Shown piece by piece: positions 1,384-9,712 of a stretch of 39,751 nucleotides of DNA (within the stretch, counting starts at the first letter, position 1; each line of letters opens with the position of its first letter). The notes under the pieces were generated by a model. That model had not been told where the DNA came from. It did no database searches and worked only from the letters and a program-made list of their open reading frames with translations. A program made the position numbers and the translations under genes. Source of the DNA: a phage. Where the stretch lies: the sequence record PZ402302.1. One strand, written 5' to 3'.

Positions 1384-3141
1384 ATGTCTACTCAAGCAAA
1401 CAAGAATGCGCTAATCATTGCGCAACTTAAGGGTGACTTCGTGGCCTTCCTGTTCGTCTTATGGAAGGCTCTGAACTTACCTAAACCAACCAAGTGTCAG
1501 ATTGATATGGCACGTACACTCGCTAATGGCGACCACAAGAAGTTTATCCTTCAGGCGTTCCGTGGTATCGGCAAGTCCTTTATCACCTGTGCGTTCGTCG
1601 TGTGGGTCTTATGGCGTGACCCTCAACTTAAGGTGCTCATCGTGTCTGCCTCCAAGGAACGTGCTGATGCTAACTCCATCTTCATCAAGAACATCATCGA
1701 CCTCCTTCCGTTCCTCTCTGAGTTAAAACCTCGACCGGGACAGCGAGACTCTGTGATTAGCTTCGACGTTGGCTTGGCTAAACCAGACCACTCACCCTCT
1801 GTGAAGTCTGTAGGTATCACTGGTCAGTTGACTGGTAGCCGTGCTGACATCATTATCGCAGATGACGTTGAGGTTCCCGGTAATAGCTCTACGAGTTCTG
1901 CCCGTGAGAAGCTCTGGACGTTGGTAACTGAGTTTGCTGCATTGCTTAAGCCACTGCCTACCTCTCGTGTTATCTACCTTGGTACACCTCAAACCGAGAT
2001 GACGCTCTACAAGGAACTTGAGGATAACAAAGGGTACAGCACAGTAATCTGGCCAGCACAGTATCCTCGTAATGATGCTGAGGCTCTCTACTATGGGGAC
2101 CGCTTGGCTCCGATGCTTAAGGCTGAATACGATGAAGGCTATGAGTTACTTCGTGGTCAACCTACTGACCCTGTTCGATTCGATATGGATGACCTCCGTG
2201 AGCGTGAACTCGAATACGGTAAAGCTGGCTACACTCTTCAGTTCATGCTTAACCCGAACCTTAGTGATGCCGAGAAGTACCCGCTACGGCTCCGTGACGC
2301 TATCGTGTGCGCAGTGGACACTGAACGTGCCCCATTGTCCTACCAGTGGTTGCCGAACCGTCAGAACCGCAATGAGGAACTTCCTAACGTGGGTCTGAAG
2401 GGTGACGACATTCACAGCTTCCATGTGTGTTCCTCTAAGACCGCTGAGTACCAGCAAAAGATTCTCGTCATTGACCCCTCTGGTCGTGGTAAGGATGAAA
2501 CAGGTTACGCAGTCCTCTACACCCTGAACGGCTACATCTACTTGATGGAGGTCGGTGGGTTCCGTGGTGGCTACGATGACCCTACCCTAGAGAAGCTCGC
2601 TAAGAAGGCCAAGCAGTGGAAGGTACAGACGGTCGTACACGAGAGTAACTTCGGTGATGGTATGTTCGGTAAGGTATTCTCTCCGGTTCTCCTGAAGCAC
2701 CACAAGTGTGCCTTAGAAGAGATTCGTGCTCGTGGCATGAAGGAGATGCGTATCTGCGATACTATCGAACCGTTGATGGGTGCACACCGCCTTATCATCC
2801 GTGACGAAGTAATCCGTGAGGACTACCAGACCGCTCGTGACCTCGATGGGAAGCATGATGTTCGCTACAGCGCGTTCTATCAGATGACCCGTATGACTCG
2901 TGAGAAGGGCGCTGTGGCACACGATGACCGACTTGATGCTATCGCATTGGGTATTGAGTTCCTTCGTGAAGGGATGCAGGTGGACTCTAAGGTTGGCGAG
3001 GAAGCTATGACCCTTGAGTTCCTTGAACACCACATGGAGAAACCTATCGTCGGTGGTGACATGGCTCGTGAGTTGGTGTCTGGAGGTGTGGACATCTACT
3101 ATGAGGATGACGGTGACGGAGAGTGCTTCATTGAGTGGTAG
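1384..3141 (+). CDS. 19: large terminase subunit / DNA maturase B (T7 gp19-like), 585 aa
   Basis: Length matches T7 gp19 (586 aa); [24 protein letters not shown]... and conserved blocks recalled from T7 gp19; RBS taggagg. Confidence 0.95.
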
Positions 3142-3228
3142 TAAATAAGTATGCGGGAAAGGTGCATAGGTAAGCACTTAGTACCGCTACGTTACCTTTG
3201 AGTAACTTACTGATATACATGAAGAAAT

Positions 3229-3251
3229 TAATACGACTCACTATTGGGAAG
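3229..3251 (+). promoter_or_regulatory. phage RNAP promoter (phiOR-like)
   Basis: taatacgactcactattgggaag; 17/17 T7-like core except T at -1; sits between gene 19 and 19.5 as phiOR does in T7. Confidence 0.85.
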
Positions 3252-3407
3252 GGCACCCTAAGACAACTTAAAGACACTTATAGACTGCATATGCAAAGTG
3301 CATACTTAGTGACTACTCTTAGAGACCCTTACAGTGTGGGATGATAGTAATTGTAATTACATCCCTACTATCAGTGTAACCATCAAGTATAACAAGGAGG
3401 ACGCTCT

Positions 3408-3563
3408 ATGCGCTTACTATCCGTGCTCAAGACACTGGCAACGCATCGAGTGACCTACAAATTTCTCGCTGTACTTGCTGCTTCCATCGGTCTCGCATCT
3501 AGTGTTGAACACATCGGTGAACTGGAGACTCTGCTTTGTTCTCTACTCACTTGTGTTCCTTAG
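3408..3563 (+). CDS. 19.5: gp19.5-like small protein, 51 aa
   Basis: ATG with RBS aaggagg; MRLLSVLKTLATHRVTYKFLAVLAASIGLASS...; last ORF before terminal repeat as in T7; hand-translated, not in ORF track (<60 aa). Confidence 0.6.
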   Translation: MRLLSVLKTLATHRVTYKFLAVLAASIGLASSVEHIGELETLLCSLLTCVP

Positions 3564-3795
3564 ACTGCTCGTTGGCGCTTAACGCGCTCTTAGTGATTAT
3601 GGTCGATATACATCTTCCCTATAATCACTGTAAGAAGTCAACTCTAAGAGGTAGCCTTATGTATTCCTTAACGGTCTACAGGGTCTCTTAGGGTCTCTCA
3701 CGTGGTCTAACCTTATGATAGCCACTCCAAGGATAACCTTATGAGAGACTTGATGTACCCCCTTTAAGAATCCTACAGAAAAATCTGAGTGGGTA

Positions 3796-3975
3796 TCTCA
3801 TAGTTCATACCAAGTGGTTTCCCCCTGTGGGTAACTCTGTGGATAACCTGAGGATAACTCTGTGGATAACTTGTGGATAACTCTAGGTTAGAGGCTGTGT
3901 GGATAACTTTGGGTGAGACTGTTAGTAACTCTGTGGATAACTCTGTGTCTCTGTGTCCCTATCTGTAAGTGACCT
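3796..3975. repeat. putative terminal repeat (single collapsed copy; concatemer junction / physical genome ends)
   Basis: Start tctcatag...ttccccctgtggg and end gtgtctctgtgtccctatctgt...acc resemble recalled first and last bases of the T7 160-bp terminal repeat; flanked by short-repeat arrays; lies between 19.5 and phiOL. Confidence 0.5.
3838..3940. repeat. array of TGTGGATAA repeats (complement of DnaA-box TTATCCACA): 5 perfect copies + 1 one-mismatch copy
   Basis: Perfect copies at 3838, 3861, 3872, 3898, 3932; tgAggataa at 3849; all same orientation, extended consensus ctgtggataact, 11-12 bp spacing for the first four. Confidence 0.8.
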
Positions 3976-4045
3976 TTGAGTTATCACCTTATGTTATCAC
4001 CTTATGACCCTTTAAGTATCACCTTATGGCTGGTTATCCTTATGT
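3976..4045. repeat. short direct-repeat array (tatcaccttatg-type) just inside the left genome end
   Basis: gttatcaccttatg x2, gtatcaccttatg, ggttatccttatg in 70 bp; related ccttatg copies also at 3655-3745 on the other side of the terminal repeat; analogous in position to T7 SRL/SRR repeats. Confidence 0.6.
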
Positions 4046-4119
4046 TAACCTTCAGTCGGTGCCTTCAGTCCATAGACCTATCGTTGCCACTCTTAGACCA
4101 GCCTTAAAGACCATACAGC

Positions 4120-4142
4120 TAATATGACTCACTATTGAGGAA
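4120..4142 (+). promoter_or_regulatory. phage RNAP promoter (phiOL-like, degenerate)
   Basis: taatatgactcactattgagg: core with C-to-T at -12 and non-GGG start; first promoter after the left end, as phiOL in T7. Confidence 0.6.
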
Positions 4143-4225
4143 TAGCTAATACTGGTCATCTTCCTTATATGGATAACTTAAAGACTACCAAAAGAGATAC
4201 TTTGAGAATTCTTTAAGATTGAGTA

Positions 4226-4254
4226 TTGACATTGATAATAGCTTATGAGACTAT
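4226..4254 (+). promoter_or_regulatory. host sigma70 early promoter candidate (A1-like)
   Basis: TTGACA at 4226-4231, 17-bp spacer, -10-like gactat/actata; upstream of gene 0.3. Confidence 0.45.
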
Positions 4255-4360
4255 AGCAACCGTTGAGAGACACAACGCTACCAACCACTAGACAAGACCG
4301 AGAGTTATCTAGTGAGGCTGAAGGGTCTCAAGTAGTCATCAACCAGACACACGAAAGTGG

Positions 4361-4389
4361 TTGACTCAACGAAAGCAATAACGTAGTAT
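4361..4389 (+). promoter_or_regulatory. host sigma70 early promoter candidate (A2-like)
   Basis: TTGACT at 4361-4366, 17-bp spacer, -10 TAGTAT at 4384-4389. Confidence 0.55.
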
Positions 4390-4450
4390 AGCAGTCGTCA
4401 ACAACTGGTCGCCCTCTGAAACAACATGAGGTGTCACGGTGAGAAAGTAG

Positions 4451-4479
4451 TTGACACGGTAACGAAAGCACGATAAGAT
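4451..4479 (+). promoter_or_regulatory. host sigma70 early promoter (A3-like)
   Basis: TTGACA 4451-4456, 17-bp spacer, -10 TAAGAT 4474-4479; downstream gatgtaccac...agtgagtcaccacactgaaaggtgatgcggtctaacgaaacctgacc nearly identical to recalled T7 A3 region. Confidence 0.7.
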
Positions 4480-4600
4480 GTACCACGAAATGACGGAACA
4501 GTGAGTCACCACACTGAAAGGTGATGCGGTCTAACGAAACCTGACCAAAGACGCTCTTTAACAATCTGGATAATAGCTCTTGAGTGTACCGTATAAGCGA

Positions 4601-4645
4601 ATAACTCAAGGTCGCACTGAAAGCGTGGCCTTTATGATATTCACT
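4601..4645 (+). promoter_or_regulatory. RNase III-type processing hairpin (R0.3-like)
   Basis: ataactcaaggtcgcactgaaagcgtggcctttatgatattcac: conserved aactcaagg...ggcctttatgat frame 25 bp upstream of gene 0.3. Confidence 0.7.
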
Positions 4646-4671
4646 TAACGAACTAACATGAGGTAACACCT

Positions 4672-5130
4672 ATGATTTTCACTAAAGAGCCTGCTAATGT
4701 CTTCTATGTACTGGTGTCAGCTTTCCGTTCCAACCTCGACGATGAGGTGAATATGAGTCGTCACCGCCACATGGTAAGCACTTTACGTGCCGCACCGGGT
4801 CTTTATGGCTCCGTTGAGTCAACCGATTTGACCGGGTGCTATCGTGAGGCAATCGCAAGCGCACCGACTGAGGAAAAAACGGTTCGTGTACGCTGCAAGG
4901 ACAAGGCGCAGGCACTCAATGTTGCACGCTTAGCTTGCAATGAGTGGGAGCAAGATTGCGTACTGGTATACAAATCACAGACTCACACGGCTGGTCTGGT
5001 GTACGCTAAAGGAATCGACGGTTACAAGGCTGAACGTCTGCCGGGTAGCTTCCAAGAAGTGCCTAAAGGCGCACCGCTTCAAGGTTGCTTTACGATTGAT
5101 GAGTTCGGTCGCCGCTGGCAAGTACAGTAA
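4672..5130 (+). CDS. 0.3: S-adenosylmethionine hydrolase/lyase (T3 gene 0.3-type SAMase; anti-restriction), 152 aa
   Basis: MIFTKEPANVFYVLVSAFRSNL...CFTIDEFGRRWQVQ matches recalled T3 0.3 SAMase almost residue for residue; first early gene after the sigma70 promoters; not Ocr-like. Confidence 0.9.
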   Translation: MIFTKEPANVFYVLVSAFRSNLDDEVNMSRHRHMVSTLRAAPGLYGSVESTDLTGCYREAIASAPTEEKTVRVRCKDKAQALNVARLACNEWEQDCVLVYKSQTHTAGLVYAKGIDGYKAERLPGSFQEVPKGAPLQGCFTIDEFGRRWQVQ

Positions 5131-5134
5131 GTGT

Positions 5135-5185
5135 TAAACTCAAGGTCGCTCCTAGCGAGTGGCCTTTATGATTATCACTTTAACC
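5135..5185 (+). promoter_or_regulatory. RNase III-type processing hairpin (R0.5-like)
   Basis: aaactcaaggtcgctcctagcgagtggcctttatgattatcactt: essentially identical to recalled T7 R0.5 site. Confidence 0.75.
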
Positions 5186-5202
5186 AATGAAGGAAGCACA
5201 CA

Positions 5203-5487
5203 ATGCGTTTAAGTAAAGATACAGCGGTGGCACTACGCTCAGCAATTGAATCCAAAGCTGCACACAACGTGGGAGGTCTTGCGGATATTGCACGGGCTTA
5301 TGAGGAGAAAGGTCTAACATTCCGTCGATTTATGTGGGACTGTTACCACGCAGTAGGCTTTCAAGAAACGACCAGAATAATCTCTGAGCACAACACGGTT
5401 ACGTTAATCGGTGGACACCTAACAGACGTGACTGATGCACACATCGAAACAATACTCAAGGTTGCGCTTAAAGATTTGCAATACTAG
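5203..5487 (+). CDS. hypothetical early protein, 94 aa
   Basis: ATG with RBS aaggaag; bracketed by RNase III-type hairpins; MRLSKDTAVALRSAIESKAAHNVGG...; no recognisable T7 0.4/0.5 similarity. Confidence 0.65.
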   Translation: MRLSKDTAVALRSAIESKAAHNVGGLADIARAYEEKGLTFRRFMWDCYHAVGFQETTRIISEHNTVTLIGGHLTDVTDAHIETILKVALKDLQY

Positions 5488-5639
5488 TGATAAACTCAAG
5501 GTCGCTCCATGCGAGTGGCCTTTATGATTATCACTTTGAAACAACGCACGGGATTAATATCAAGTGATAAACTCAAGGTCGCTCCATGCGAGTGGCCTTT
5601 ATGATTATCACTTTGAAACAACGCACGGGATTAATATCA
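5486..5639. repeat. perfect 2 x 77-bp tandem duplication, each unit carrying an RNase III-type hairpin
   Basis: 5486-5562 and 5563-5639 are identical; each contains aaactcaaggtcgctccatgcgagtggcctttatgattatcac; starts in the stop codon of the 94-aa ORF and ends at the ATG of the 0.6A-like ORF. Confidence 0.9.
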
Positions 5640-5776
5640 TGCTGAAATCTTATGTTATGCCTATCCATACACGCAACGGGGCAACAGTTTGCACACCTGA
5701 TGGCTTCGCAATGAAACAACGAATCGAACGCCTTAAGCGTGAACTGCGCACAAATCGCAAGATCAACAATATCTAA
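5639..5776 (+). CDS. 0.6A: gp0.6A-like small early protein, 45 aa
   Basis: MLKSYVMPIHTRNGATVCTPDGFAMKQRIERLKRELRTNRKINNI closely matches recalled T7 gp0.6A; ORF-track 5564 start is a GTG extension inside the repeat. Confidence 0.65.
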   Translation: MLKSYVMPIHTRNGATVCTPDGFAMKQRIERLKRELRTNRKINNI

Positions 5777-5889
5777 ATCTAATTACATTTGACACTGGAG
5801 AATGCACAAAGTGAGCGCTAGCGACATTATGGGCGCTCTCTCTCTCTCTCTCCCTCTTAAAGTCAACTAACTAAATAGGACACAATCTA

Positions 5890-6987
5890 ATGAACTACAC
5901 CGACATTCAGGCACGTCTGGCAATCATCAAGTCTCTCCCGATTAGTGAACTGGACAAGCGCCAGCCTCTTCTGGTTGCACTGGCTGCTGACATCGTGAAC
6001 GGTGAGACAAGTGATGGCAACGATACTGATGGCTCAAATGGCTTGGAGTATCAAGACTGGTGGCACACATTGGGTGCACTAATGCGTGATGCAGGTTTCC
6101 GCATGTTAGGTAATGGTCACTTTAGCGCGGCCTACTCGCATGAACTGTTACCGGGTCGAGTCATCAAGGTTGGCTTTAAGAAAGAGGATTCAGGCGCTGC
6201 ATACACCGCATTCTGTAGGATGCACCAAGGTCGAGCGGGTATCCCTAACGTCTATCACGTAGCACGTCATGCAGGTTGCTACACGGTTGTTCTTGACAAG
6301 CTGTTAGCATGTGACCGCGATAATTATGACCATGAGGTATACGCTGACCTAGCACGTTACTTTGTGGAGTCGGATTGCCATGACGCAAGCGACTTTGCAC
6401 CGGGTGACTACGAGTTCATTGAGACCTGCCAGCTTATCCGCAAGTTCTTCAAAGGGATTGCATCGTTTGACATGCACAGCGGGAACATTATGTTCTCTGA
6501 AGATGGCACACCATACATCACTGACCCGGTTAGCTTCTCACATGACCGTGAACGTGAGGACGGCTTCCCTCTGGACCCGGATGCACTGATTGCCGAGGTC
6601 GAGGCAATAGCTAACGAGCGCATCATTGAACGTTGCCGCAACCGCAAGGCCAAGTGTGACCCTAACGGCTCCTTTCAGGTTAACCGCAAGGCCGCAATGA
6701 AACGCCGCAAGCGCAACCGCAAGTTACGTGCTAAACATGCAGCGGAAGGAATGCACCAGTTTGTCAAAGGGCGTCTTGAGCGTAGAGCTATTGACCGCAA
6801 CGAACGCCGTGCTGAGATGTTCATGGGGTCTGCATGGCGCGACTTTTGGTTACGCAACGGTAACGCAACGGTCCGCAAGATTGACCAAGTGAACGGCCTC
6901 AAGTGGCAACTAGGGGACCGCCTAGCAATCCAAGCGGGTCTACCTCTGAACATCGACAAGTTACTTGACGCACAACTGAAAGGCTGA
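5890..6987 (+). CDS. 0.7: serine/threonine protein kinase / host transcription shut-off protein (T7 gp0.7-like), 365 aa
   Basis: Conserved blocks LPICELDKRQ, MLGNGHFSAAYSH, RVIKVGFKKEDSGAAYTAFCRM, IASFDMHSGNIMFS, ITDPVSF shared with recalled T7 gp0.7; immediately upstream of gene 1. Confidence 0.9.
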   Translation: MNYTDIQARLAIIKSLPISELDKRQPLLVALAADIVNGETSDGNDTDGSNGLEYQDWWHTLGALMRDAGFRMLGNGHFSAAYSHELLPGRVIKVGFKKEDSGAAYTAFCRMHQGRAGIPNVYHVARHAGCYTVVLDKLLACDRDNYDHEVYADLARYFVESDCHDASDFAPGDYEFIETCQLIRKFFKGIASFDMHSGNIMFSEDGTPYITDPVSFSHDREREDGFPLDPDALIAEVEAIANERIIERCRNRKAKCDPNGSFQVNRKAAMKRRKRNRKLRAKHAAEGMHQFVKGRLERRAIDRNERRAEMFMGSAWRDFWLRNGNATVRKIDQVNGLKWQLGDRLAIQAGLPLNIDKLLDAQLKG

Positions 6988-6995
6988 TAAGGTGT

Positions 6996-7040
6996 ATCTT
7001 CAAGGTCGGCACTGACTGCTGGCCTTTATAGATAAACTTT
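6996..7040 (+). promoter_or_regulatory. RNase III-type processing hairpin (R1-like)
   Basis: cttcaaggtcggcactgactgctggcctttatagat between 0.7 and gene 1. Confidence 0.6.
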
Positions 7041-7060
7041 CTTAACAACGTGAGGCAACA

Positions 7061-9712
7061 ATGACTAACGTAATCAACGCACCAAAGAACGACTTCTCTG
7101 ACATCGCTAACGCAATCATGCCGTACAACATTCTGGCTGACCATTACGGTGCACAGCTTGCAGCTACGCAGTTACAGCTTGAGCACGAAGCGCACACTGA
7201 GGGTGAGAAGCGTTTTCTTAAGGCAATGGAACGTCAAATCAAAGCGGGTGAGTTCGGTGATAACGCAGTGGCTAAACCGCTCCTGTCATCTCTCGCACCG
7301 AAGTTTATCGAGGCGTGGAACACTTGGTTCACTGAAGTGGAAGCGAAGCGTGGCAAGCGTCCAGTGGCTTACAATCTGGTACAGAAGGTTGCACCTGAAG
7401 CTGCTGCATTCATCACACTGAAGGTCACGCTGGCTTGCTTGACGAAAGAAGAGTTCACCAACCTGCAATCGGTCGCTACTAAGATTGGTCGTAGCATTGA
7501 AGATGAACTGCGTTTTGGTCGCATCCGTGACGAAGAAGCGAAGCACTTTAAGAACCACGTACAGGAGGCACTGAACAAGCGCGTTGGCATCGTCTACAAG
7601 AAAGCATTCATGCAAGCCGTAGAGGGTAAGATGCTTGATGCTGGTCAACTGCAAACCAAGTGGACTACATGGACACCTGAAGAATCAATTCACGTTGGTG
7701 TGCGCATGTTGGAACTGCTCATCGGGTCTACTGGTCTCGTTGAGTTACACCGCCCGTTCGCTGGGAACATCGAGAAGGATGGCGAGTACATCCAGTTAAC
7801 AGAACAATATGTAGACCTGCTGTCTAAACGTGCTGGTGCACTGGCTGCAATCGCTCCGATGTATCAGCCTTGCGTGGTCCCTCCGAAGCCTTGGACTTCT
7901 CCGGTTGGTGGTGGCTATTGGGCGGCTGGTCGCAAGCCTCTCTCTCTGGTTCGTACTGGTAGCAAGAAGGGACTGGAACGTTACAACGATGTGTACATGC
8001 CTGAAGTTTACAAGGCGGTGAACATCGCACAGAATACTCCTTGGAAGATTAACAAGAAGGTTCTGGCAGTGGTCAACGAGATTGTGAACTGGAAGCATTG
8101 CCCGGTTGAAGATGTACCTGCTCTCGAACGTGGTGAACTGCCTGTCAAACCTGAAGACATCGACACGAACGAAGCGGCTCTGAAAGCGTGGAAGAAAGCG
8201 GCCTCCGCAATCTATCGCAAAGAGAAAGCACGAGTTTCTCGCCGCATGAGCATGGAGTTCATGTTAGGTCAGGCCAATAAGTTCGCACAGTTCAAAGCTA
8301 TCTGGTTCCCAATGAACATGGACTGGCGCGGTCGTGTGTATGCTGTGCCGATGTTTAACCCGCAAGGCAACGACATGACCAAAGGCTTGTTGACGCTCGC
8401 TAAAGGTAAACCAATTGGTGTCGATGGGTACTACTGGCTGAAGATTCATGGTGCAAACACTGCTGGCGTGGACAAGGTGGACTTTGCAGAACGCATCAAG
8501 TTCATTGATGACAACCATGAGAACATCATGAGCGTAGCTGCTGACCCGATTGCTAACACTTGGTGGGCCGAGCAAGACTCTCCGTTCTGCTTCCTCGCGT
8601 TCTGCTTCGAGTATGCAGGAGTCCAGCACCACGGAATGAACTACAACTGCTCTCTTCCGCTGGCGTTTGATGGTAGCTGCTCCGGTATTCAGCACTTCTC
8701 CGCAATGCTTCGTGATGAAATTGGCGGTCGCGCTGTTAACTTACTGCCGAGCAAGGAAGTCCAAGACATCTACCGCATCGTAGCGGAACGTGTCAACGAG
8801 ATTCTGAACCAAGATGTTATCAACGGGACCGACAACGAAGTAGAGACCGTGACCAACAAGGACACAGGGGAAATCACTGAGAAGCTCAAGCTGGGCACTA
8901 AAGAACTAGCTGGTCAGTGGCTGGCCTACGGTGTGACCCGCAAGGTCACTAAGCGTTCGGTTATGACGTTGGCTTACGGTTCCAAAGAGTACGGATTCCG
9001 TGACCAAGTTCTTGAGGATACCATTCAGCCAGCTATCGACGATGGCAAGGGCTTGATGTTCACTCAACCGAACCAAGCGGCTGGCTATATGGCTAAACTG
9101 ATTTGGAACGCGGTAACGGTGACAGTGGTCGCAGCGGTTGAAGCAATGAACTGGCTGAAGTCTGCGGCTAAACTTCTAGCTGCTGAAGTCAAGGACAAGA
9201 AGACCAAAGAGGTTCTCCGCAAGCGCTGCGCGGTACATTGGGTTACTCCTGATGGCTTCCCGGTCTGGCAGGAATACAAGAAGCCAGTACAGACCCGCTT
9301 GAACCTGATGTTCTTAGGCCAGATTCGTCTACAGCCTACCGTGAACACCAACAAGGATAGCGGAATTGATGCTCGTAAGCAGGAGTCAGGCATCGCACCT
9401 AACTTTGTCCACTCAATGGATGGAAGCCACCTGCGCATGACTGTGGTCCGCTCCAATGAGGTCTACGGTGTGGAATCGTTCGCACTGATTCACGACTCCT
9501 TTGGTACTATCCCTGCTGATGCTGGCAACCTGTTTAAAGCAGTGCGCGAAACGATGGTCAACACTTACGAAGAGAACGATGTACTAGCAGACTTCTATGA
9601 GCAATTTGCTGACCAGTTACATGAATCGCAGCTTGACAAGATGCCTGAGATGCCAGCTAAAGGTTCTCTGGACCTGCAAGAAATCCTTAAGTCAGACTTT
9701 GCGTTTGCCTAA
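7061..9712 (+). CDS. 1: single-subunit DNA-dependent RNA polymerase (T7 gene 1-like), 883 aa
   Basis: Same length as T7 RNAP; long identical stretches by recall (ACLTKEEF-type palm/fingers blocks, specificity-loop region PTVNTNKDSGIDARKQESGIAPNFVHS, C-terminus SDFAFA). Confidence 0.97.
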   Translation: MTNVINAPKNDFSDIANAIMPYNILADHYGAQLAATQLQLEHEAHTEGEKRFLKAMERQIKAGEFGDNAVAKPLLSSLAPKFIEAWNTWFTEVEAKRGKRPVAYNLVQKVAPEAAAFITLKVTLACLTKEEFTNLQSVATKIGRSIEDELRFGRIRDEEAKHFKNHVQEALNKRVGIVYKKAFMQAVEGKMLDAGQLQTKWTTWTPEESIHVGVRMLELLIGSTGLVELHRPFAGNIEKDGEYIQLTEQYVDLLSKRAGALAAIAPMYQPCVVPPKPWTSPVGGGYWAAGRKPLSLVRTGSKKGLERYNDVYMPEVYKAVNIAQNTPWKINKKVLAVVNEIVNWKHCPVEDVPALERGELPVKPEDIDTNEAALKAWKKAASAIYRKEKARVSRRMSMEFMLGQANKFAQFKAIWFPMNMDWRGRVYAVPMFNPQGNDMTKGLLTLAKGKPIGVDGYYWLKIHGANTAGVDKVDFAERIKFIDDNHENIMSVAADPIANTWWAEQDSPFCFLAFCFEYAGVQHHGMNYNCSLPLAFDGSCSGIQHFSAMLRDEIGGRAVNLLPSKEVQDIYRIVAERVNEILNQDVINGTDNEVETVTNKDTGEITEKLKLGTKELAGQWLAYGVTRKVTKRSVMTLAYGSKEYGFRDQVLEDTIQPAIDDGKGLMFTQPNQAAGYMAKLIWNAVTVTVVAAVEAMNWLKSAAKLLAAEVKDKKTKEVLRKRCAVHWVTPDGFPVWQEYKKPVQTRLNLMFLGQIRLQPTVNTNKDSGIDARKQESGIAPNFVHSMDGSHLRMTVVRSNEVYGVESFALIHDSFGTIPADAGNLFKAVRETMVNTYEENDVLADFYEQFADQLHESQLDKMPEMPAKGSLDLQEILKSDFAFA

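Follow-up and report, generated by a model that had tools for sequence, protein, structure and literature searches.

A hairpin-bounded accessory gene in the early region of a T7-like phage, and a neighbouring 77-bp tandem repeat that is probably an assembly artefact

The stretch of DNA analysed here (the window, all 39,751 nucleotides of record PZ402302.1) is a T7-like phage genome of the Berlinvirus type. Considered as a whole, its early region is best explained by three elements, a combination that we regard as probable: a cassette bounded by RNase III hairpins, a small helical early protein encoded within it, and a second copy of a 77-bp unit that is an artefact. The 94-aa gene at the centre of this arrangement would be an accessory cassette, occupying a variable slot between gene 0.3, which encodes an S-adenosylmethionine (SAM) lyase, and a 0.6A-like gene. 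Taken by itself, the 77-bp duplication is quite probably a product of assembly, if the variant in which two contigs were joined by hand is counted in. The overall early architecture is ordinary for the T7 group, and the results leave the current understanding of T7-group biology unchanged.

Over 25 kb, the core of the window is 98.7% identical to Escherichia phage nasanit, a Berlinvirus. The early region would be transcribed by the host RNA polymerase, and its layout suggests a series of repeating units, each consisting of an RNase III hairpin, a ribosome-binding site and a small gene (Table 1). A preliminary description of this DNA had named a T3-type gene 0.3 upstream of the 94-aa reading frame and a 0.6A-like gene downstream of it, and both assignments hold. 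The SAM lyase belongs to the expected family, and the exact protein of the window is widespread among genomes; the 0.6A-like protein is identical to a protein of phage Carena that carries PF26851 (Phage_T7_0_6), and the 0.6B frameshift extension known from the T7 and phiYeO3-12 annotations was not evident at 5639-5776. Further downstream, the exact 0.7 kinase of the window found no match in the collection searched and the RNA polymerase protein (7061-9712) is identical to that of Salmonella phage vB_STy-RN5i1, a combination that fits a mosaic genome. Upstream of gene 0.7, a (CT)n tract at 5836-5857 differs in length between near-identical phages, the alignment giving the window four bases more than Carena and eight more than nasanit; it has the look of a microsatellite, within the 0.7 leader, that is prone to slippage.

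Table 1. Early-region features of the window, in order of position
Feature	Position	Strand	Basis
R0.3-type RNase III hairpin, upstream of gene 0.3	4596..4647	+	repeat family D1, diverged copy (61% identity)
Gene 0.3, T3-type S-adenosylmethionine lyase, 152 aa	4672..5130	+	PF23780 (E 2.5e-42), phrog_2226
Left R0.5-type RNase III hairpin, loop CTAGC; left cassette boundary	5130..5181	+	T7 R0.5 match
Shine-Dalgarno-like GAAGGAAG, 6 nt upstream of the ORF ATG	5189..5196	+	read from sequence
94-aa accessory early gene, phrog_9817 family	5203..5487	+	full-length profile match, E 4.9e-40
Copy 1 of the 77-bp unit: hairpin plus 27-nt leader of the 0.6A-like gene	5486..5562	+	TRF, repeat search
R0.5/R0.45-type hairpin of copy 1, loop CATGC; right cassette boundary	about 5486..5537	+	phiYeO3-12 R0.45 match
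Copy 2 of the 77-bp unit	5563..5639	+	100% identical to copy 1
Hairpin of copy 2, same sequence as in copy 1	5563..5614	+	repeat identity
0.6A-like early gene, 45 aa	5639..5776	+	phrog_8393, E 2.1e-27, profile positions 1-45 of 111
Gene 0.7, serine/threonine kinase	5890..6987	+	phrog_2828, E 2e-179

The 94-aa frame had been described as bracketed by three hairpins of the R0.5 type. The bracketing stands, and to it we add a fourth, R0.3-type hairpin further upstream, which folds at -14.4 kcal/mol and aligns with the phiYeO3-12 element annotated as 'putative RNase III site R0.3'. All four are intergenic, between early genes of the + strand and downstream of the A-promoter region. The type assignment is well founded: T7 R0.5, reportedly first mapped by Dunn and Studier in 1983, is identical to window positions 5130-5182 at 51 of 53 positions (730-782 of the reference locus L005), whilst 5486-5536 is identical at 50 of 51 positions to an element of phiYeO3-12 annotated as 'putative RNase III site R0.45'. 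The upstream hairpin (folded as 5130-5190) reaches -17.3 kcal/mol with a z-score of -3.3, and each downstream copy -21.6 kcal/mol with a z-score of -5.1; the minimum-free-energy fold common to all copies consists of two stems and an asymmetric internal loop. Between the upstream and downstream hairpins we count three differences in 52 positions rather than the single mismatch first reported, namely T/A in the lower stem (5134 versus 5490) and a swap of TA for AT in the loop (CTAGC versus CATGC). This fold is also borne out across relatives. Standard pairs fill 98.1% of cells in 27 distinct hairpin copies (drawn from 43 related loci), falling to 27-58% in a control in which the pairing partners were slid; three pairs have changed on both sides, and the variable part of the hairpin is its 5-nt apical loop.

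Because the window sites are near-identical to the mapped T7 R0.5, we predict that they are cleaved by host RNase III. In T7, R0.5 is an efficient and well-used RNase III site (PMC3643576). The likeness of the window hairpins to T7 R0.5 and phiYeO3-12 R0.45 extends from near-identical sequence to the same two-stem fold and to an intergenic position within an early polycistronic transcript. The differences are ones of context: the T7 site lies between genes 0.4 and 0.5, whereas the gene between the window copies is absent from T7, and one of the window hairpins is present twice in tandem. At the RNA level, cutting of the hairpins by host RNase III would release every gene as a monocistronic message of its own, ending in a stabilising 3' hairpin. 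A scan of 3000-8000 against Rfam (E <= 1) returned no family; T7 RNase III sites are evidently absent from its models. There is also a likeness, 73% over 26 nt (family D2), between the hairpin's 5' arm and the 3'-most codons of the 94-aa ORF (ACTCAAGGTTGCGCTTAAAGATTTGC, 5454-5479); these codons could represent the remnant of an older hairpin, or the resemblance could be due to chance.

At the DNA level, these near-identical repeats of about 50 bp offer homology for recombination between co-infecting phages, and the comparison with relatives shows that whole cassettes can be inserted, swapped or lost in this way. Loci with an identical 94-aa protein mostly have another backbone, in which the gene stands between ocr-gp0.4 and gp0.5-gp0.6. 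In 11 loci with other backbones (of the ocr-gp0.4 type or from Teetrevirus), the only homology to the window lies at about 5130-5537, starting with the first base of the left hairpin and stopping with the final base of the right hairpin. What follows gene 0.3 also varies amongst backbones that are 97-99% identical to the window: Carena has nothing in the slot, nasanit has a 66-aa gene there, and backbone homology with both phages stops at 5181-5184 to restart at the right hairpin. Depending on the contig, the same SAM lyase protein is followed by a 66-, 82- or 94-aa gene. Hairpin-to-hairpin spacing around the 94-aa gene is 356 nt in every locus for which both flanks are available; by comparison, the 66-aa 0.45-like gene has its hairpins 317-319 nt apart, and gene 0.3 has them 531-537 nt apart.

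Since homology ends at the hairpins, and since the content of the slot differs between near-identical backbones, R0.5-type hairpins act as cassette boundaries and recombination joints. This is what the preliminary description had proposed, and the comparison of the 0.3-0.7 interval across T7-like phages that it recommended places the gene between hairpins at that constant distance each time. R0.5-type hairpins clearly delimit early cassettes of fixed length (356, ~318 and ~535 nt) that are exchanged between T7-like genera. The loop variants act as markers of ancestry: the left hairpin carries the CTAGC loop of Carena and T7, and the right one carries the CATGC loop of phiYeO3-12 together with a leader of the Carena type.

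Such an arrangement is reminiscent of the promoter-early stem-loop (PeSL) elements, which T4-type phages carry as mobile regulatory cassettes (Arbiol et al. 2010, PMC2839356; Comeau et al. 2014, PMC4122927). In PeSL cassettes, as here, repeated regulatory stem-loops flank small, non-essential early genes and provide homology for shuffling between close relatives; in the window elements, too, the breakpoints of homology between relatives coincide with the repeats. However, PeSLs are promoter-plus-terminator units found in myoviruses, whereas the window elements are RNase III hairpins in podoviruses, and inspection of the conserved hairpin unit of the window revealed neither sigma-70 promoter hexamers nor a T-run. 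The mini-circles that are a feature of PeSLs are likewise without a demonstrated counterpart in T7-like hairpin cassettes. Being RNase III sites and not promoter-terminator units, the window hairpins would function like PeSLs without being members of that group.

What, then, does the cassette carry? The gene had been called unknown, which is accurate in so far as its family is uncharacterised, but it is not new. The match to phrog_9817 covers ORF residues 1-94 and profile positions 1-93 of 94, and Escherichia phage EG1 has the protein at 100% identity, deposited as the hypothetical protein HOS48_gp03 (YP_009795799.1). In EG1 and other Teseptimavirus-type genomes the phrog_9817 cassette follows ocr-gp0.4, whereas in the window it follows the SAM lyase on a Berlinvirus backbone. 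The gene is present in 62 of 50,697 phage records, all of them Studiervirinae-type podoviruses; it lies near the left end in those records that were deposited from the left end, and nearly all copies are annotated as hypothetical. Homologues, of 87-105 aa, were found only in phages. The family is small: clustering at 90% identity leaves 51 clusters in a set of 5.8 billion sequences, an exhaustive profile search recovered 13 representatives, and the members are 76-105 aa in length and lie on phage-sized contigs, with the exception of three long proteins that have short local matches.

The preliminary description had also noted that the ORF bears no similarity to gp0.4 or gp0.5, and we concur: it has no Pfam hit at E <= 1, the families of those two proteins (PF26807 and PF26813) included, and gp0.4 and gp0.5 are separate neighbouring genes in relatives that carry the 94-aa gene. 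The absence of similarity extends to gp0.45 of phiYeO3-12, against which BLASTP returned no alignment. Searches of Pfam (E <= 1), PADLOC and PDB sequences gave no match for the ORF or for its 37-member alignment, and known defence and anti-defence families gave no match to the protein in sequence or in fold. A literature search by the family and accession identifiers found no paper.

Most substitutions are synonymous or affect the third base of a codon: 21 of 33 differences from ESh9 fall at third codon positions, as do 16 of 22 from WX1, and coding sequences of identical 94-aa proteins are 5-8 synonymous changes apart, a set which, having been picked by protein identity, indicates conservation and does not give an unbiased ratio. 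The gene is real and conserved, and evolves under purifying selection. AlphaFold2 models the protein as five helices with a short β-hairpin (pLDDT 93.7, pTM 0.82). The depth of the alignment matters here: with close homologues only, pLDDT was 54.5, and it rose to 93.7 when distant relatives from the exhaustive profile search were added. A structural comparison had been suggested as a check on this protein, and it pairs the confident model with no structural relative amongst solved structures.

From the early position of the gene, its small size and its patchy distribution, we infer that the protein most likely acts as a stoichiometric inhibitor, binding a host factor or a defence protein and thereby neutralising it. 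As a small, conserved and confidently modelled family, it could reasonably be included in a screen for anti-defence or host-takeover functions. Could all of these observations be joined in a single, more ambitious reading? The 94-aa protein would then count as a new effector of host takeover or anti-defence whose fold is absent from solved structures, its gene would travel in a hairpin-bounded mobile cassette, and the 77-bp copy would be the genuine footprint of a rearrangement. We judge this conjunction to be distinctly unlikely; were it true, the spread of the gene among T7-like genera would represent the podovirus counterpart of PeSL shuffling in T4.

The last element of that reading, the tandem repeat, calls for separate treatment. 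Both the 94-aa ORF (5203-5487) and the exact, two-copy 77-bp repeat (5486-5639) are present where they had first been placed, and TRF reports the latter as 77 bp x 2.0 copies with a score of 308. The letters at the junction of the two copies are ...GGGATTAATATCA followed by AGTGATAAACTC... (in a second rendering, ...CACGGGATTAATATCA followed by AGTGATAAACTCAAGG...). The bases flanking the repeat differ (T at 5485 versus A at 5562, and T at 5640 versus A at 5563), so the repeat is exactly 77 bp, without microhomology at its edges. As no other exact repeat anywhere in the window exceeds the 27 nt of the second longest, chance offers no explanation. The unit had been said to run from the stop codon of the ORF to the ATG of the next gene, which is right in outline; its exact limits are the second base of the TAG stop and the A of the ATG. 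Its left end is also the first paired base of the hairpin, both flanking ORFs are intact, and in copy 1 the leader is followed by AAG instead of ATG. The two tandem units together can adopt an alternative, extended fold at -58.3 kcal/mol. Two further reading frames were considered here and rejected, namely a 31-aa ORF (5509-5604) created by the duplication and a GTG-initiated 70-aa extension (5564-5776): both start within the hairpin stem/loop and lack a ribosome-binding site.

An exact duplication had been taken to mean a recent evolutionary event, and this interpretation is not supported: the length of the unit, the rotated state of the genome and the absence of the duplication from the relatives examined are better explained by an assembly artefact. 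As to length, SPAdes, given reads of about 150 nt, goes up to k = 77 by default (final k values of 55, 77, 99 and 127 were considered), and SPAdes assemblies of circularly permuted phage genomes have been found with identical 77-bp sequences at both contig ends (PMC9409062). As to the state of the genome, the window begins exactly at the ATG of the gene for the terminase small subunit gp18 (1-267), and at about 2956-4486 the sequence passes without a break from the right genome end through one terminal repeat to the left genome end, the terminal-repeat region (about 3796-3950) being internal and present once. The window is a circularised and rotated assembly in which the direct terminal repeat has collapsed and the physical ends are internal. 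The terminal repeat of BA14 served as the comparison by which the genome ends were located, and the window sequence at 3796-3960 has diverged from it; the terminal repeat of phiYeO3-12 gave no match to the window. Inside the collapsed terminal-repeat region (3796-3960) there is an array, at 3824-3947, of some ten CTGTGGATAAC-like repeats of 11-12 nt.

Because the window was circularised and re-oriented, the original join between contig ends must be somewhere inside it, and such a join, if left untrimmed, would look like exactly such a 77-bp repeat. Copy 2 (5563-5639) would be the 77-base k-mer overlap left by SPAdes at the ends of a circular contig, and the overlap would have become internal once the contig was rotated, untrimmed, to the ATG of the terminase small subunit. 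The repeat shares with the known end overlaps its exactness, its length of 77 bp, its two copies and its occurrence in a circularly permuted phage assembly. It differs in location: these overlaps normally lie at contig ends, and the internal position in the window requires that rotation took place without trimming.

As to relatives, the junction between the copies gave no hit in phage records, in IMG/VR, in JGI metagenomes, in GTDB genomes or in the 43 loci fetched, although these negative searches are of limited power, with 14 IMG/VR contigs carrying the exact hairpin and an independent assembly of the same phage absent from the collections searched (as judged by its 0.7 kinase). The closest pair of hairpins in relatives is 293 nt apart (86 hairpins in 43 loci), and in WX1 and WX2, whose gene order is the same, the unit occurs once. 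Insertion of the cassette through the hairpins was considered as a source of the duplication and rejected, since recombination in hairpins predicts a single hairpin-plus-leader unit.

Two considerations nonetheless weigh against an assembly artefact: the boundaries of the unit are tidy and the ORFs intact, where a random contig join would rarely be so placed; and, as hairpins favour replication slippage, a real endpoint could fall at the base of the stem. It is therefore worth asking whether the duplication could be real, very recent and selectively neutral, a doubling of the intergenic module by slippage or illegitimate recombination at the hairpin base. The intact flanking ORFs speak for this, as does a left endpoint at the first paired base; De Bruijn assemblers, which need junction k-mers for internal tandem copies, would assemble a genuine duplication likewise, and the early region is non-essential and recombinationally active. 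However, the length coincides with the SPAdes default k of 77 (PMC9409062), the junction is without microhomology, the genome has demonstrably been cut and rotated, and no relative or metagenomic contig has the duplication, hairpins elsewhere being at least 293 nt apart. Overall we hold a neutral duplication to be unlikely, without dismissing it. If it were real, two predicted RNase III cuts would release a non-coding fragment of ~77 nt without altering where the upstream mRNA ends (3') or where the downstream one begins (5'), such that any effect would be small.

A duplication that is not only real but functional is very improbable indeed. It might improve processing, insulate translation of the 0.6A-like gene from the message upstream of it, or supply a 77-nt small regulatory or decoy RNA; what can be cited for it is the perfect identity of the copies, their intergenic placement and the extended alternative structure of the double unit, at -58.3 kcal/mol. 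Yet perfect identity is a sign of recency or of artefact and not of selection, nothing similar was found in the 43 related loci or in any collection, Rfam gave no match, and the leader of copy 1, which precedes AAG, adds no coding capacity.

We return to assembly as the preferred source of the second copy, and to its other variant: perhaps two contigs that shared a 77-mer vertex of the assembly graph were joined by hand, the graph having branched at the cassette boundary in a lysate of phages with mixed slot contents. Adjacent SPAdes contigs do overlap by k, slot variants do occur among near-identical phages, and a repeat that starts exactly where cassette-specific sequence ends would have its tidy boundary explained. 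On the other hand, a manual join is pure inference, and deletion variants arising through the identical 17-nt and 27-nt hairpin stretches would put the branch at 5491 or 5511; a deletion subpopulation was consequently rejected as the cause of a branch at 5486. We regard a join of this kind as quite improbable. The practical implications of an untrimmed overlap are nevertheless worth stating: 77 bp would be added to the length of the genome record, and a spurious 'recent duplication' would be created that could mislead comparative work.

Two observations on the 94-aa family concern other sequences. The first 66 residues of P0036, a 104-aa protein from the exhaustive search, match the family, and its C-terminus resembles that of the SAM lyase (PF23780, E 8.5e-4), the member having been assigned by reading its sequence; either a misassembly or a natural fusion of the two adjacent genes accounts for it. 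Finally, MT350293.1, deposited as 'Enterococcus phage EFA-2' (39,964 bp, host Enterococcus faecalis), carries the 94-aa gene at 94.7% identity; the gene is of the enterobacterial T7-like early type, and it looks as though either the host label is doubtful or the lysate was contaminated.
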